A DNA stretch of 64,000 nt, from contig CAJOIQ010000004.1 of assembly GCA_905234795.1 (NCBI GenBank), forward strand, positions 1,582-65,581, read 5' to 3'. The notes under the pieces were generated by a model. That model saw only the letters and a program-made list of their open reading frames with translations, was not told where the DNA came from and searched no databases. Positions 51,414-57,800 of this stretch are shown here, in pieces (position 1 is the stretch's first letter; each line of letters opens with the position of its first letter). The position numbers and the translations under genes are program-made. The stretch comes from an uncultured Bacteroidales bacterium (lineage in GTDB: Bacteria > Bacteroidota > Bacteroidia > Bacteroidales > UBA932).

Positions 51414-51554
51414 TATTATGACCGCGTTGACAACCAGAACGCATAGAACGGCGATTCCGTGTCAACGCGGCCGCGTTTTTCCCAAAAAAGGCCGATTCTG
51501 TTGCCGCGTTGACAAAAAATCGGCCTCTGGTGCATTCTGCGTGTCAACGCGGCT
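51414..51554. repeat. BIME-like doublet (unit A 51421-51471, 31-nt linker, unit B 51503-51553); left terminal repeat of the 6.4-kb segment
   Basis: Each unit is (G)CCGCGTTGACA-N27-TGTCAACGCGGC; near-identical inverted copy at 57660-57800. Confidence 0.9.
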
Positions 51555-51616: not shown

Positions 51617-53119
51617 ATGGACGAGAGACGCTTTCGATATCACCTTCTTGCACTGGCGGTTGTGGCAGTGTGGGGTGTGACCTTTGTCTCCACGAAGGTG
51701 CTCATTGGGGCAGGAATGCACCCGGTGGCCATATTTCTGGTCCGTTTTATCCTGGCCTACGCAGGAATCTGGCTGTATATTGGCCTCACAAGGCAGAAGG
51801 CTCAACTCTGGTACGGTTGGAAAGACGAACTCGTTTTCCTGATTCTGGGGGTGACCGGCGGGTCCTTCTATTTCCTCACGGAGAACACCGCCCTGGCCTA
51901 TACACAGGCGTGTAATGTGGCTTTCCTGGTTTGTTCTGCGCCGCTTTTTACGGCCATTTTCACCTTGATTTTCAAGCGGTTGTGGAAAGGACGTTTCGCC
52001 GATGGCCTGGAGAACATCCGCCTGGGATGGCCCCTCATAGGGGGGACGTTGCTGGCACTCGGAGGAATGGCCATCGTGGTTTTTGACGGAGCCAGGCTGC
52101 AGCTATCTGCTAAAGGGGACCTGCTTGCCATCGGCGCCGCCCTCTGCTGGGCTGCCTACAGTCTGTTTATGGCCCAGATGACCAAGGATTATGGAACTGT
52201 AACGGCAACCAGGAAAGTATTTTTCTACGGGCTCTTCACCATTTTGCCTTTCATCGGCGGCTACCGGGATTCCTTTACTCCCGCCATCCTGGGCCAGACG
52301 GCCGTGTGGACCAACCTCCTCTTCCTGGGACTCATCGCTTCCCTGGTGTGCTTCATCTTTTGGAACCTGGTAATGGAAAAGCTGGGGAACGTCACTTCCA
52401 CCAATTACGTGTACCTGAACCCGGTCTTCACCCTTCTTACGGCCACAGTGCTTCTGGGAGAGCGGATGACCCTGCTGGCAGGCATCGGCTGTGCGGCCAT
52501 CCTGGCTGGTGTCATCTGGGCCGGCGGCGCCCATGCTCCGGCCGACAAAGAAATGAAGCGCGCCCTCCACACGCCCCTTGTTGTCCTTTTCTGCCTTTTC
52601 CTATTGCCGGGTTGCTCCAGCCTGCGCGGAAAGGAAGCTCTACGGCAGGGAATCGAGTCTATCTCCTTGATGAAGCAGCTGGGTACCGTGGAATGCCGGG
52701 TGCGGAAGATCATCAAGGCCGATGACCAGGGCGAATGGTACAAGATTGGGGACCGCAAAATCCTTTTCACCTGCACGGCTTATCTCAAGGCCGGCATCGA
52801 CCTTTCTTCCTTCAGTGCCGATGACATCGTCACGGACCGCCTGGCCAGGAAAGTGACCGTCACCCTCCCTCACGCCACCCTTCTTTCGCTGGACATTCCC
52901 CCCTCCGAGATTCGGGAAGAGTACGATCAGGTGACCCTCTTCCGCTCATCATTTTCCATCCAGGAGCGAAACGACCTTCTCAAGCAGGGGGAACGGCAAA
53001 TCCGCAACAGCGTCCCTTCCCTGGGCATTCTCCAAAAAGCCGAGGAGAACGCCCGGAAGTTTTTTGAATCGGCCTTCGGAGCCATGGGTTTCACTACCGT
53101 GGAGGTGGAGTTTAGATAG
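51617..53119 (+). CDS. EamA/DMT transporter read in frame into a DUF4230-type lipoprotein
   Basis: First ~300 aa: two EamA repeats (WG.TF, GDLLA, YVYLNPVF). From internal ATG 52553: MKRALHT...LLPGC lipobox plus LKAGIDL and VTLPHATLL. Confidence 0.75.
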   Translation: MDERRFRYHLLALAVVAVWGVTFVSTKVLIGAGMHPVAIFLVRFILAYAGIWLYIGLTRQKAQLWYGWKDELVFLILGVTGGSFYFLTENTALAYTQACNVAFLVCSAPLFTAIFTLIFKRLWKGRFADGLENIRLGWPLIGGTLLALGGMAIVVFDGARLQLSAKGDLLAIGAALCWAAYSLFMAQMTKDYGTVTATRKVFFYGLFTILPFIGGYRDSFTPAILGQTAVWTNLLFLGLIASLVCFIFWNLVMEKLGNVTSTNYVYLNPVFTLLTATVLLGERMTLLAGIGCAAILAGVIWAGGAHAPADKEMKRALHTPLVVLFCLFLLPGCSSLRGKEALRQGIESISLMKQLGTVECRVRKIIKADDQGEWYKIGDRKILFTCTAYLKAGIDLSSFSADDIVTDRLARKVTVTLPHATLLSLDIPPSEIREEYDQVTLFRSSFSIQERNDLLKQGERQIRNSVPSLGILQKAEENARKFFESAFGAMGFTTVEVEFR

Positions 53120-53128
53120 GGAGGTGCC

Positions 53129-53764
53129 ATGAAAAAAACAATAATATTTTTTCTGTCCATCCTGATGCTGGCCGGCCTCTTCTTGATCCGTTCCCGGCAC
53201 AGGACGGAACGCGGCCTTTCCATTGACGACACGCCCGTCATCGCTACCCGGATACGGGCTCTGGGAGAACTGACCACCGCCTGTTTCTACGACGAAATCA
53301 TCATTTCCGACACCAAAGAAAACGCCCTGTCTTCTTCCCAGCTGGGTTCTCTGGCAAAGGAGAAGCTGGGGAAGGACCTGGACGACCATCTGGTCATCAT
53401 CGCCCGCGGAACCGTCCGTGCAGGAATCGACCTCCGGCGGATGGATGACCACAATATCCGCGTTGCGGGAGATACCGTCGTCGTCCGGCTGCCTTATCCG
53501 CAGTATCTGGACATCATCCTCAACCCCTCCGACTTCGAAGTGTTTGCCGAATCGGGCCGATGGACCCAGCGACAGTTCTCCAGGCTCCAGGAATCAGCCC
53601 GGCGCAGACTGCTCATGGAGGCCGATGACGCCGGCCTTCTGCAAAAAGCCTACGACGGCGCGATGGACGCCATCGTCGATCTTCTTACCGCCTGCGGCTA
53701 TACCTACATCCGCTTCGACCACCCCGGCTCCCAACTCCGGATGCCTTCGCCCCAGCCGCGTTGA
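53129..53764 (+). CDS. DUF4230-type protein
   Basis: N-terminal anchor, IRALGELTT, VRAGIDL and VVVRLPYPQ; paralog of the preceding C-terminal domain. Confidence 0.8.
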   Translation: MKKTIIFFLSILMLAGLFLIRSRHRTERGLSIDDTPVIATRIRALGELTTACFYDEIIISDTKENALSSSQLGSLAKEKLGKDLDDHLVIIARGTVRAGIDLRRMDDHNIRVAGDTVVVRLPYPQYLDIILNPSDFEVFAESGRWTQRQFSRLQESARRRLLMEADDAGLLQKAYDGAMDAIVDLLTACGYTYIRFDHPGSQLRMPSPQPR

Positions 53765-53805
53765 CACGCAGAATGCACCAGGGGCCGATTTTTTGTCGAC
53801 GCGGC
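53755..53805. repeat. Single unit B repeat between the DUF4230 gene and the transposase 3' end
   Basis: GCCGCGTTGACA-N27-TGTCGACGCGGC; contains the TGA of the DUF4230 gene and ends 1 nt before the transposase stop. Confidence 0.9.
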
Positions 53806-53806
53806 A

Positions 53807-54724
53807 TTACAGTATTACCAGGCAACGCCGAATCTGGGCATCGGGGAGGTGGAAATCGTATTGCAGCTGTTGGGCCAGGCGCTGTTTCTGGGTGTCAGTG
53901 AGTTGGTAGACGGACGTCGCTCCATATCTGGGGAGAAGGTCGTGGTCGATTAAGTGGCAGACATCCAGATCCTGCAAACGGGAGCGGCTAAACTGACGCC
54001 CATTCTCGTTCTTCAGCATCTGAGCGATTGACTTTTCATCGGCATTTTCTACCATCTCCAGTGTGATGGGGGCTCCCGTCCGGTCTTGTTCCTGATCGCG
54101 CGACCAACTCTCGTCTGTGAGTCGGTTCATCTGGTACAGGTAGTTGCGGGGTGAGGCATAGTATTGCTCGGCCCGGCGAATCTCCATAAAACTGCTGCGG
54201 AGGAAAACGCCCTCGGCATTCATCTGGTACTGGTCCGGGAACTCCGAATGTCGGGGTAGATAAGAGGCAATCTCCTGCCGGGACAATGACGCCGCTGTTT
54301 CTGACGACAGGCCGATATCCTCGGCAAAGAGGTCTCGCGCCGTGCAATACTTATAGCCCAGCGCCGTTGCCGCCGCACCGTGATGAAGCCCGTTCCGGAG
54401 AATGTAGTTCTGCAAAACCATCTGGTGATAGAAGCCCTCCACTTTCAACAGATAAGTGTATTTTTCTCCGAAACGGCCCTTCCGGTCATATTTGTGATTG
54501 AAGTATTTGGTGTAGGACATCCTGAGCGCTGCGGCAAACGCCAACGGCGTACTCGTAAACACATTCTGGTGTACGTGAGTGGACATTTCCGCATCCACGA
54601 GGATTTCCGTATCAGAAGCAAATGCCCGTAGCGCCATCAGATTCAACATCATGTTGTGGTCTTCCTCGTCCCGAAACATCACCTCCTGATGGGATGTGAA
54701 ACAGATATGATACGATTCCTTCAT
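53807..54724 (-). mobile_element. HUH/Y1 (IS200-like) transposase, REP-associated tyrosine transposase (RAYT) type, with C-terminal extension
   Basis: N-terminal YHI, F.D.ED, HUH motif MSTHVH, YFNHKYDRKGRF, and catalytic Tyr in YILRNGLHHG (cf. RAYT YIxxNP); adjacent palindromic repeats. Confidence 0.8.
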
Positions 54725-54892
54725 GGAACAAACATAAGGCAAAGTGGATACAAAACCAAGGACTGTTTTGCCATCGGCTAAAAGAATTTACGTTTTGACG
54801 GATTGAGGTGCATTTTTTTAAGTTTTAGCCGATTATTCGGCTGAAAAATATCTGTTTTGCAGGTTGCCAAGCTACGATTCTAGAATAATTCG

Positions 54893-54900
54893 TATATTTG
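54893..54900 (+). promoter_or_regulatory. -7 element (TATATTTG) upstream of the MTase leader
   Basis: TAnnTTTG match about 250 nt upstream of ATG 55153. Confidence 0.6.
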
Positions 54901-54903
54901 TAG

Positions 54904-55128
54904 TGTATCCCCGGTGGATACAAGACATATGTAATTTAGCATTTGCTATTTATTCGGTTGCCCGAAACCTGAGAAATTTCACCTGTCAACCCGGATGAGT
55001 CAGCGAATGTCTGCGCCTTGGCGTGGACTGGACTTATCTGTTGACTAGGCTTTCTCAGGGCCGCGGGCATGGATTAGAAAAGTCCATGCCTTTTTCGTGC
55101 CCTGGAGCGCCTGAGTCAAGGATAAGTC
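54904..55128 (+). ncRNA. candidate structured leader/attenuator RNA with a 17-codon uORF (54995-55048)
   Basis: Hairpin tgtatcc/ggataca, long stem 54968-54990 with 55040-55059, terminator, and downstream segment 55109-55128 complementary to 55031-55050. Confidence 0.55.
55066..55095 (+). terminator. intrinsic terminator inside the MTase leader
   Basis: ggcatgga-(9-nt loop)-tccatgcc-ttttt. Confidence 0.75.
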
Positions 55129-55152
55129 GCAAGTGCCGTAAGAGCGCAGCTT

Positions 55153-56331
55153 ATGGCCAACAATTCGAATCTTGGCGCCGCTAAGGCTGCCAAGAACGAC
55201 GAGTTCTACACCCAGTATGCCGATATCCAAAAAGAAGTCAATGCATACCTGGAGTACAACCCGGACACCTTCCGTGACAAGACGGTGCTTTTGCCGTGCG
55301 ACGACCCGGAATGGAGCAATTTCACCCGATTCTTTGCCCAGAACTTCGAACGCCTGGGTTTGAAACGGCTCATCAGCACTTCTTACGCCGTTGAGAGCAA
55401 GAAGTACAAGGACTACGAGCCCACCCTTTTTGAGACAGAGAGTCCCTTGTTCGACATGGACAAGACCCGCATCAAGGGCAAAATCTTCGAACTTACCCGG
55501 GACACCAACCAGAATGGCCGCATCGACATCGATGACCTCGAGTGGCATTACTTGGAGGGTGATGGTGACTTCCGCAGTCCGGAAGTGTGCGCCCTCCGCG
55601 ACCAGGCCGATATCATCGTTACCAATCCTCCGTTCTCGTTATTCAGAGAGTTCGTTGCGTGGATAATTAATTCAAATAAACAGTTTCTTATCATAGGGCA
55701 TCAAGGAAGTATTGGGTACAATGAAATCTTTCCCCTGATTCAGTTCAACAAGATGTGGTTGGGAATGGGATTCGCCGGTGGTGCCGGGCATTTTATAAGC
55801 CCTTATGAAGATCATGCTGTTGCTGGGAACCATAAAAAAGGAATGATACGAGTTTCGGGTGTAACATGGTTTACAAACATAGATCATGGTCGACGTCATC
55901 AGCCGATGATACTGATGAGCATGAAAGACAACATACGATATGGGAAGCACAAGGATCTTAAAGAAAGTGGATATCGAACATATGACAATTACGATGCTCT
56001 TGAGGTCCCGTATTCAGATGCCATTCCTTCCGACTACGAAGGGGTTATGGGTGTTCCAATCACTTATTTGGATAAGTACTGTCCGGATCAATTCGAAATC
56101 GTTGGTATTACAAAAACTAAGTTTAAATTGGCCTCCAAGATTTACCCGGAGCAGATTCAGATCAATAAAGACGGAACAAAACAAAGGGTAACAAAGCTAA
56201 ACGACGGTCCTGTACTAAAGATAAATAATCCTCCTGCTAACCAGGTGTACTATATGGTTGGGAACGAAATGTATATTCAATTATACACTCGAATTCTTAT
56301 TCGCAAAAAACATAATGACCAGGCTGAATAG
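55153..56331 (+). CDS. adenine-specific DNA methyltransferase, EcoRI family
   Basis: AKNDEFYTQY, LPCDDPEWSNF, GDGDFRS, motif IV TNPPFSLFREF, and YDNYDALEVP...MGVPITYLDKY. Confidence 0.88.
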   Translation: MANNSNLGAAKAAKNDEFYTQYADIQKEVNAYLEYNPDTFRDKTVLLPCDDPEWSNFTRFFAQNFERLGLKRLISTSYAVESKKYKDYEPTLFETESPLFDMDKTRIKGKIFELTRDTNQNGRIDIDDLEWHYLEGDGDFRSPEVCALRDQADIIVTNPPFSLFREFVAWIINSNKQFLIIGHQGSIGYNEIFPLIQFNKMWLGMGFAGGAGHFISPYEDHAVAGNHKKGMIRVSGVTWFTNIDHGRRHQPMILMSMKDNIRYGKHKDLKESGYRTYDNYDALEVPYSDAIPSDYEGVMGVPITYLDKYCPDQFEIVGITKTKFKLASKIYPEQIQINKDGTKQRVTKLNDGPVLKINNPPANQVYYMVGNEMYIQLYTRILIRKKHNDQAE

Positions 56332-56466
56332 ACAGAGGCTTCGGACGGCGTAGCCGCCCGTGGCTTCGTGAACGGGAGGGGCCCAGAGGAGATTGCCGGT
56401 CGAAGCCGGCAATGACGAATGGGAGGGATAGTCCCGCAGGGACGTACCGGCCCGAAGCCTCTGTCT
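56330..56466. mobile_element. MITE-like element (core 56333-56463) with a nested GTCATT...AATCTCC repeat
   Basis: 15-bp IR agacagaggcttcgg/ccgaagcctctgtct; inverted homolog of 2665-2769; nested unit at 56388-56416. Confidence 0.8.
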
Positions 56467-56488
56467 GTCAGCCCAAAAAGACAAAGAT

Positions 56489-57661
56489 ATGATAGCACGA
56501 CTTGTAACCGACTGGAGCATCGGCGACATTTGCAAAGGATTCCAGTACAACGAATACGAAGGCAAGGGGCTGTACGGCCTGTCCGGGCGGCTGACCATTC
56601 AGCCCGAATTCCAGCGCCATTACCTTTATGCCGAGAACGGCGGCAAGAAGGAGGTAGATGTCATCCAGTCCGTGCGGAACGGCTATCCGCTGGGCCTCAT
56701 CTATTTCTCCAAGGTAGGAGAAGACCGTTATGAGGTCCTCGACGGCCAGCAGCGCATCACCTCGCTGGGCCGTTTCATCACCGAGAAATTCGCCTGGATT
56801 GATGCCGATGGCAAGCCCTGGTACTTCACTGCCTTCAATAAAGACGAGCAGGAGAAGTTCCTGAACACCAAACTGCTCATCTATGTCTGTGAAGGCACGG
56901 AGAAGGAAATCAAGGACTGGTTCCGCACCATCAACATTGTCGGCATTCCGCTCAACAATCAGGAGACGCTGAATGCCGTATATTCCGGGCCGTTTGTAAC
57001 CAAGGCCAAAGAGGAGTTCTCCAACTCCAACAACACCAACATCAACAAGTGGAACTGCTTCATTCCCGGTACCGCTAAGCGGCAGGACTATCTGGCCGCC
57101 GCGCTGGACTGGGTAAGCAAGGGAAATGTGGAAGAGTATATGGCGGCCCATCGGTACGACGATGACATCACCGAACTCAAGGCCTATTTCACTTCCGTCA
57201 TCGACTGGATTACCTCCGTTTTTGACATCACGCCGGAGAAGGAAATGTGCGGGCTCAAGTGGGGTGAGCTCTACGAGCGCTTCCATAAATCGGCCTATGA
57301 TCCGGCCGCCGTGGCCGAAAAGGTCCGGGAACTGTACGAGAGCTTCTACGTGAAAGAGAAGAGGGGCATCTACGAATACATACTGGACGGCTGCCAGAAC
57401 ACGAAACTGCTCAACGTCCGCGTGTTTGATGAGCCCACCAAAAAGGCTGTTTATGCCCAGCAGACGGCCGCTGCCAGGGAGAAGGGCGAATCCAACTGCC
57501 CGCTATGCGCCATCGGCCACGATGCCAATCACACCAAAATCTGGGACTTGAAGGATATGGACGCCGACCACGTCACCGCGTGGAGCAGGGGCGGCGCGAC
57601 GGACATCGGCAATTGCCAGATGCTTTGCAAAACCCACAACCGCGCCAAAGGTAACCGTTAG
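56489..57661 (+). CDS. DUF262 (GmrS-like) plus HNH endonuclease domain protein
   Basis: QPEFQRHY and [11 protein letters not shown]262 motifs; C-terminal CPLC...[12 protein letters not shown]...[16 protein letters not shown]. Confidence 0.88.
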
Positions 57662-57800
57662 CCGCGTTGACACGCAGAATGCACCAGAGGCCGATTTTTT
57701 GTCAACGTGGCAATGAAATCGGCCCTTTTTGGGAAAAACGCAGCCGCGTTGACACGGAATCGCCGTTCTACGCGTTCTGGATGTCAACGCGGCCATAATA
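57660..57800. repeat. BIME-like doublet (unit B 57661-57711, 31-nt linker, unit A 57743-57793); right terminal repeat
   Basis: Inverted near-identical copy of 51414-51554, including terminal tattatg/cataata. Confidence 0.9.

Follow-up and report, generated by a model that had tools for sequence, protein, structure and literature searches.

The stretch of DNA analysed here (the window) comprises 64,000 nucleotides (nt) of contig CAJOIQ010000004.1, from an uncultured Bacteroidales bacterium. Towards its end it encodes an EcoRI-family adenine DNA methyltransferase (MTase; gene M), followed by a protein that joins a DUF262 domain to an HNH domain and is predicted to be a restriction endonuclease (REase; gene R). 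An earlier note, made from the sequence alone, had drawn attention to these two open reading frames (ORFs). The ORF list, the Pfam matches and the motif positions agreed with it on the location, strand and motifs of both genes, and the ORF positions and domain matches confirmed the co-oriented pair. Both genes scored far beyond chance, and more than 8000 homologs were scored. The gap between M and R was 157 nt, a spacer occupied by a structured repeat. Similarity to related cassettes set the limits of the cassette at 54883–57661. Its GC content was 0.51, compared with 0.58 for the whole window, which marks it as a low-GC insert.

The MTase ORF matched the full Pfam model PF13651 (EcoRI_methylase; E 7.9e-124) and the PADLOC model MTase_II PDLC03297 (E 2.5e-84). 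The catalytic NPPF motif was intact (aa 158–161, nt 55624–55635), and the invariant CDDP block was located at nt 55291–55308. The protein was 43% identical to the genuine M.EcoRI of an E. coli plasmid, where the adjoining gene is named 'type-2 restriction enzyme EcoRI' (locus L004).

The nuclease matched Pfam GmrSD_N/DUF262 at aa 36–165 (E 1.2e-17) and Pfam HNH (PF01844) at aa 355–390 (E 3.2e-7). Sequence-profile matches to solved structures were obtained with the Gme HNH nuclease (4h9d; E 9e-7) and BrxU (7p9k; E 7e-4). The HNH motifs were CPLC (aa 337–340), DADH (aa 358–361, with His361 as the predicted catalytic residue), N375, and CKTHN within aa 375–384. C337, C340, C380 and H383 are the likely zinc ligands; the last of these positions was His in the window nuclease and Cys in the consensus of most homologs. 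DUF1524 (PF07510, (D/E)HxxP) had no match in the window nuclease, whose C-terminus consisted of a CxxC...CxxH zinc site and a DADH...N...HN arrangement.

Table 1. Positions in the window of the two genes, their domains and motifs, and the surrounding features.
Feature	Position (nt)	Strand	Evidence
EcoRI-family N6-adenine DNA methyltransferase, 392 aa	55153–56331	+	ORF list; Pfam and PADLOC matches
DUF262-HNH restriction endonuclease (predicted), 390 aa	56489–57661	+	PADLOC REase_II; Pfam GmrSD_N and HNH; AlphaFold2 model
DUF262 / ParB-Srx-like domain, aa 36–165	56594–56983	+	Pfam; conserved residues; Foldseek; BrxU profile match
QR motif of DUF262	56612–56617	+	Motif scan (EFQR, aa 40–43)
DGQQR motif of DUF262	56741–56755	+	Motif scan (aa 85–89)
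All-helical middle region, aa 168–332	56990–57484	+	Secondary structure of AlphaFold2 model
Zinc-finger HNH nuclease domain, aa 337–390	57497–57658	+	Pfam HNH; profile matches to Gme HNH 4h9d, Cas9 HNH and McrA
Cassette leader, upstream	54883–55152	+	DNA similarity to related cassettes starts at 54883 (L008) and 54922 (L009)
Structured palindromic repeat, ~135 nt, in M–R spacer	56331–56465	.	RNA fold −77 kcal/mol, z −5.0
Pair of 51-nt REP-like hairpins	57661–57793	.	Starts at last base of REase stop codon; right cassette boundary
Conserved hypothetical ORF, 311 aa (305 aa as called by others)	53807–54742	−	ORF list; homolog comparison
Single REP-like hairpin	53755–53805	−	Precedes 311-aa ORF
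Left REP-like hairpin pair	51421–51553		Hairpin family copies

Residue conservation was assessed in an alignment of 84 diverse nuclease representatives (33–59% identity). The positions invariant in 84/84 included five residues of the DUF262 nucleotide site (Q42, R43, D85, G86 and R89) and two of the HNH domain (C337 and H361), and Q87, Q88, C340, D360, N375 and C380 were each conserved in at least 90%. Every family-invariant residue was present in the window copy. In BrxU, the Gln and Arg of the DGQQR motif place the gamma-phosphate and are needed for nucleoside triphosphate (NTP) hydrolysis and phage resistance, and nucleotide binding drives a dimer-to-monomer switch ahead of cleavage (PMC8565348). 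Homology to these motif roles, together with the invariant DUF262 residues, makes a nucleotide-dependent step plausible in the nuclease as well. The NTP regulation suggested by the earlier note is thus plausible, given the intact nucleotide-site motifs.

With a shallow alignment, the AlphaFold2 model of the nuclease reached a predicted local distance difference test score (pLDDT) of 43.5; the 84-homolog alignment was used instead and gave a pLDDT of 94.1 and a predicted template modelling score (pTM) of 0.83. In the four-part model, a small beta unit at the N-terminus precedes the DUF262 alpha/beta domain (to approximately aa 165), after which come an all-helical region (aa 168–332) and a beta-beta-alpha HNH domain (aa 337–390). 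The helical region had no domain-level match in Pfam or the PDB and may serve in recognising DNA or in dimerisation. Foldseek searches against the PDB returned weak domain-level matches to ParB CTPases, BrxU, sulfiredoxin, Gme HNH and McrA, none of which reached E 0.001. Neither Foldseek nor profile searches found a solved structure of the DUF262-HNH family in the PDB.

The nuclease also matched the PADLOC model REase_II PDLC03418 end to end (E 7.7e-79; residues 20–389 aligned to profile positions 17–371 of 372). We take PDLC03418 and PDLC03297 to stem from REBASE-based clustering, with a type II restriction-modification (R-M) system presumably called when both components are adjacent. By our reading of these rules, PADLOC would call the pair RM type II. 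The window pair adds a member to a type II family that the catalogue already contains; it is not a new defence system. The earlier description of an uncatalogued candidate system therefore did not hold, since REase_II (end to end) and MTase_II matched the two genes. The PDLC03418 model scored higher on a 'short' subfamily, represented by a Macrococcoides plasmid (453 bits), a Lactiplantibacillus plasmid (404 bits) and one viral contig (435 bits), than on the window nuclease (263 bits). These scores place the prototype of the model in a sister clade to the window nuclease, which was approximately 36–40% identical to the 'short' subfamily and carried two small insertions before the HNH domain.

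NCBIfam held no model for the nuclease family, and the public names of homologs were generic ('DUF262 domain-containing', 'HNH endonuclease family', 'GmrSD restriction endonuclease domain-containing protein', 'McrA'). The searchable literature contained no description of a DUF262-HNH REase with an EcoRI-family MTase. The pairing was absent from the type II review, the Orlowski–Bujnicki classification, the GmrSD phylogenomics, the His-Me classification, and the Menshen and BrxU papers. The earlier note had known of no biochemical characterisation of the pairing, and none was found in this literature.

The nuclease was nearly always encoded next to an EcoRI-family MTase. In a sample of one genome per species, 80 nuclease loci (61–94% identity) spanned Bacteroidota, Clostridia, Patescibacteria, Chloroflexota, Planctomycetota, Spirochaetota and one Pacearchaeota metagenome-assembled genome (MAG). 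An EcoRI-family MTase lay upstream on the same strand in 66/66 loci for which 1.3 kb or more of upstream DNA was available; at six genome loci without an MTase match, the contig ended there. Among viral contigs, the MTase accompanied the nuclease in 70 of the 71 informative loci, at nuclease identities down to 35%. At the genome loci, the stop codon of M and the start codon of R typically overlapped by 4 nt or were separated by 2–15 nt, with either the 4-nt overlap or a gap of 2–8 nt in most relatives. The pair was also found on plasmids of Actinomycetota, Bacillota and Pseudomonadota, including those of Pseudarthrobacter, Enterococcus faecium, Macrococcoides and Lactiplantibacillus, and in the Flavobacterium phage laban6-1. 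The two genes are thus conserved as a pair, with a near-obligate linkage of R to M, and behave like an R-M unit, in line with the R-M-like system proposed earlier.

The linkage was looser when viewed from the MTase. In an MTase-centred viral sample, a DUF262-HNH gene lay downstream in 47/68 loci, and the MTase was an orphan in the other 21/68. DUF262-HNH was the commonest partner of the EcoRI-family MTase in the MTase-centred sample, and an EcoRI-like REase was present in 1/80 MTase-centred loci. The claim that a PD-(D/E)XK enzyme is the usual partner of this MTase family consequently holds only for EcoRI itself. That R almost never occurs without M, while M often occurs without R, is the pattern predicted for a toxic nuclease neutralised by methylation. 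This asymmetry is a classical R-M signature, and ordinary methylation protection fits it best. The cassette is an intact, two-gene R-M unit, and the present data establish its architecture, motif conservation, near-obligate R-to-M linkage and horizontal mobility.

Variants and remnants of the cassette were also observed. On 21 Lactococcus plasmids, only a 52-aa remnant of an EcoRI-family MTase was present, with 73% identity to aa 27–78 (plasmid matches H94–H106); these remnants look like relics of a decayed cassette. In gut viral contigs (L125 and L128–L134; seen directly in L125, L129 and L130), a 283-aa gene was inserted between M and R, and its product resembles, by eye, a Bro-N/antirepressor protein.

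The M and R genes of the window have different histories. Compared with its closest relatives L008 and L009, the cassette showed DNA similarity of approximately 76% over 54883–56099 and 84% over 56475–57660. The similarity broke down at 56100–56474, a segment that covers the MTase C-terminus and the spacer, and the C-terminal third of the MTase, from approximately 56100, was mosaic relative to its closest relatives. The nearest REase relative was 94% identical, but the MTase beside it only 69%. The GC content at third codon positions (GC3) was 0.54 for the MTase and 0.76 for the REase, with 0.70–0.83 for host genes. Together, the similarity break and the differing GC3 values of M and the host-like R identify the cassette as a mosaic.

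Among the closest known systems was the PDLC03418 type II family, which has the same two-gene layout and the same DUF262-helical-HNH architecture as the window pair and whose plasmid-borne representatives from Macrococcoides and Lactiplantibacillus likewise have an EcoRI-family MTase as their partner. As in type II R-M systems, the window contains a separate MTase with an intact motif and an adjoining, catalogued REase, with R genetically dependent on M. The EcoRI system shares the MTase (same Pfam family, with the NPPF motif). However, R.EcoRI is a PD-(D/E)XK enzyme encoded ahead of its MTase, whereas the window nuclease is unrelated to it and follows M; the window MTase adjoins a DUF262-HNH protein instead of an R.EcoRI-type enzyme.

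GmrSD and BrxU have the same domain order as the window nuclease, with DUF262 (QR-type and DGQQR motifs), a helical linker and a His-Me-finger nuclease. In contrast, the window nuclease is approximately 200 residues shorter and carries a zinc-finger PF01844 HNH domain instead of DUF1524 with its DHxxP motif. GmrSD and BrxU stand alone and target modified cytosines, while the genomic context of the present nuclease family was MTase-linked throughout. In SspABCD–SspE, a DUF262 nuclease is likewise genetically coupled to a module that marks self DNA; SspE has a DUF1524 domain and works with four-protein phosphorothioation, as opposed to the predicted base methylation by a single MTase in the window. 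Menshen NsnA matched only nuclease residues 33–177, the DUF262 part, PD-T4-2_A matched only residues 33–189, and the matches of the PADLOC models HEC-05/06 were confined to the DUF262 part. According to the ORF list, the cassette contained none of the partner genes of NsnA or PD-T4-2.

The type II REases KpnI, Hpy99I, PacI, MnlI and HpyAV have a beta-beta-alpha-metal module with a structural zinc and a separate MTase (PMC4081073). They share the beta-beta-alpha-metal/HNH module and the zinc site with the window nuclease, and profile searches detected no similarity beyond the HNH core. To our knowledge, none of the five carries a ParB/Srx-fold nucleotide-binding domain.

We consider it likely that the cassette is a functional R-M operon with classical logic, combining protective adenine methylation with HNH cleavage. 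Across the whole host chromosome, the EcoRI-family MTase would add an N6-methyl group to adenine within a short target sequence. The DUF262-HNH protein would be the cognate endonuclease, whose zinc-finger HNH domain would cut DNA without this methylation, such as that of phages and plasmids. The DUF262 domain keeps every nucleotide-binding and -hydrolysing residue of BrxU and GmrSD, and would most likely act as a nucleotide-dependent switch, not as a modified-base sensor, gating dimerisation and DNA engagement. Site-specific adenine methylation, cleavage of unmethylated sites and NTP dependence are what we infer. The target of the MTase may be related to GAATTC, a suggestion that comes from the family precedent of M.EcoRI only.

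Several observations weigh against this reading. An NTP requirement would contradict the strict definition of type II enzymes, by which cleavage takes place at or close to a fixed recognition sequence, requires Mg2+ alone and is prevented by the cognate methylation; the invariant residues of the DUF262 nucleotide site cast doubt on the 'no NTP' part of that definition. On a few viral contigs, intact nucleases were found where the MTase was missing (L129, none within 5 kb), split by an IS3-family transposase (L098, 3502–5004) or chimeric (L168, 4022–4990, an ORF with a 3'-phosphoadenosine-5'-phosphosulfate (PAPS)-reductase-like N-terminus, TDRQ repeats and the MTase C-terminus). Such arrangements would not be expected for a constitutively toxic REase unless a second MTase is encoded elsewhere. 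Across 65 cassettes (2080 pairs), mean identity was 69.7% for the nuclease and 56.5% for the MTase, and R was more conserved than M in 94% of the pairs; the divergences of M and R were barely correlated (rho 0.15). Both features set the family apart from most type II systems. The PDLC03418 prototype sits in the sister subfamily and not in that of the window nuclease, at the low identity given above, and the searchable literature yielded no biochemical or genetic data on any family member. Finally, in a Markov-based test on 37 host flanks and the window, neither AATT and GAATTC nor the remaining xAATTx sites were depleted. Since AATT-core palindromes are not avoided in the host flanks, they lend no independent support to any target.

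An alternative that we regard as possible, though clearly less probable, is that the nuclease is a nucleotide-gated restriction enzyme, in which an NTP switch of the ParB/Srx type controls the HNH domain and may also read methylation status or act together with the MTase. If true, this would account for the higher conservation of R than of M and for the occasional tolerance of R without M. The same observations also bear on an Ssp-like or otherwise MTase-dependent system, in which DUF262 would read N6-methyladenine (m6A), or the MTase itself would license or direct a nuclease of low specificity, so that R alone would be inert and not lethal. The characterised DUF262 proteins GmrSD and BrxU respond to modified DNA (PMC8565348 for BrxU), as SspE is reported to do (PMC9646914 and reviews). 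The partner belonged in every case to the EcoRI-family MTases, also where the REase was just 36% identical. A dependence of R on M or on the methyl mark is kept alive, at low probability, by the high conservation of R, by partner MTases of mosaic make-up whose divergence does not follow that of R, and by the contigs on which an intact nuclease stands beside a disrupted or absent MTase (L098, L129 and L168). However, these exceptions amount to 3–4 metagenomic contigs among approximately 137 informative loci and may reflect decay or a second MTase. Unlike the GmrSD and SspE enzymes, the nuclease also has no DUF1524 domain, the M-first order and translational coupling are typical of protective methylation, and the family belongs to a REBASE-derived type II REase model. 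On balance, we find a methylation-sensing or MTase-dependent system unlikely.

It is very improbable that the protein is a type IV, GmrSD-like modification-dependent nuclease that travels with an unrelated MTase, for example an anti-restriction or epigenetic gene. Its N-terminal domain is indeed Pfam GmrSD_N, and NCBI/JGI names of homologs include 'GmrSD restriction endonuclease domain-containing protein' and 'McrA'. Yet type IV enzymes are typically solitary, in contrast to the near-obligate same-strand adjacency to one MTase family found here; the C-terminal domain is PF01844 HNH and not DUF1524, and a nuclease attacking m6A DNA would clash with the adjoining adenine MTase. Somewhat less improbable, though still quite doubtful, is a primarily selfish addiction or homing cassette, which would owe its persistence to post-segregational killing and horizontal transfer and provide phage defence only as a by-product. 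Consistent with this are REase identities of 61–94% across Bacteroidota, Clostridia, Patescibacteria, Chloroflexota, Planctomycetota and a Pacearchaeota MAG, the occurrence on plasmids and in phages, and the insertion of the window copy at a hotspot like those of repetitive extragenic palindromes and their associated tyrosine transposases (REP/RAYT). However, all sampled contigs of the strain's lineage hold the cassette at the same place, and the selfish explanation puts the same molecular mechanism in evolutionary terms without proposing another.

The pair carries little weight as the discovery of a defence system, because one standard tool already assigns both of its genes to type II R-M. 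Its interest lies in a widespread cassette, ranging from gut Bacteroidales to bacteria of the candidate phyla radiation (CPR), actinobacterial and lactic-acid-bacterial plasmids, and phages, and in a ParB/Srx-fold DUF262 plus HNH architecture whose mechanism we did not find described in the literature. Should the conserved nucleotide site prove functional, the textbook type II class would not describe the nuclease, and a ParB-CTPase-like switch would gain a role beside those in chromosome segregation and type IV restriction. Were the nuclease indeed nucleotide-gated, it would represent a widespread mechanistic class of R-M outside types I–IV as defined. The family is small, soluble-looking and easily cloned, which makes the question directly testable.

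The leader of the cassette contained a −7 promoter-like motif of the Bacteroidetes type, TATATTTG, at 54893–54900. We take TAnnTTTG to be the known Bacteroides promoter consensus, and on this basis TATATTTG is a putative promoter element of the cassette. The repeat in the M–R spacer has a terminal 14-nt inverted repeat, GACAGAGGCTTCGG. A second copy was present 54 kb away on the minus strand (approximately 2660–2775), without the 26-nt inner hairpin. Rfam returned no match to the spacer repeat nor elsewhere in 51.0–58.5 kb. The repeat is probably a secondary insertion, similar to a miniature inverted-repeat transposable element (MITE) or a REP, and not part of the ancestral operon.

The cassette is flanked by the minus-strand 311-aa ORF on one side and a pair of 51-nt hairpins on the other. 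These hairpins have a 12-bp stem (GCCGCGTTGACA / TGTCAACGCGGC) and a loop of approximately 27 nt, and all five window copies lie at 51.4–57.8 kb. Among these copies is a 141-nt inverted repeat (51414–51554 against 57660–57800). The number of hairpin copies beside the cassette differed between strains (L090 and L092 compared with the window). In five metagenome contigs with an identical neighbouring DUF4230 protein, the arrangement was the same in 5/5, with the R-M pair visible in the four that were long enough. The sequencing runs containing the locus were gut and bovine-gut metagenomes.

The 311-aa ORF was considered as part of the R-M system and rejected, as its homologs stand alone in unrelated contexts. 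It had 335 homologs in Bacteroidales, many of them on contigs of approximately 1–1.5 kb, which suggests a multi-copy mobile gene. Elsewhere, homologs lay between housekeeping genes with the same hairpins on either side. The hairpins were not present in the related R-M cassettes L008–L014 and flanked solitary homologs of the ORF in L173–L178. Its invariant motifs (H56-x-H58 and Y113-x-x-R116-N) resemble those of an HUH/Y1 REP-associated transposase, an identity that found no support in Pfam, PHROG, PADLOC or PDB profile searches, where the ORF had no match. The hairpins and the 311-aa ORF are an independent, REPtron-like element of the host, separate from the R-M unit. A 500-aa ORF (51617–53119) that joins an EamA transporter with a DUF4230 domain, and a second, lipoprotein-like DUF4230 gene (53129–53764) directly after it, occupy the interval from the left hairpin pair to the single hairpin.

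Two other tetranucleotide palindromes were strongly under-represented in the 64-kb window, CTAG with an observed/expected ratio of 0.18 and GATC with 0.45, in contrast to AATT-type palindromes. This scarcity hints at other restriction pressure in the lineage, for example from a GATC-specific system.

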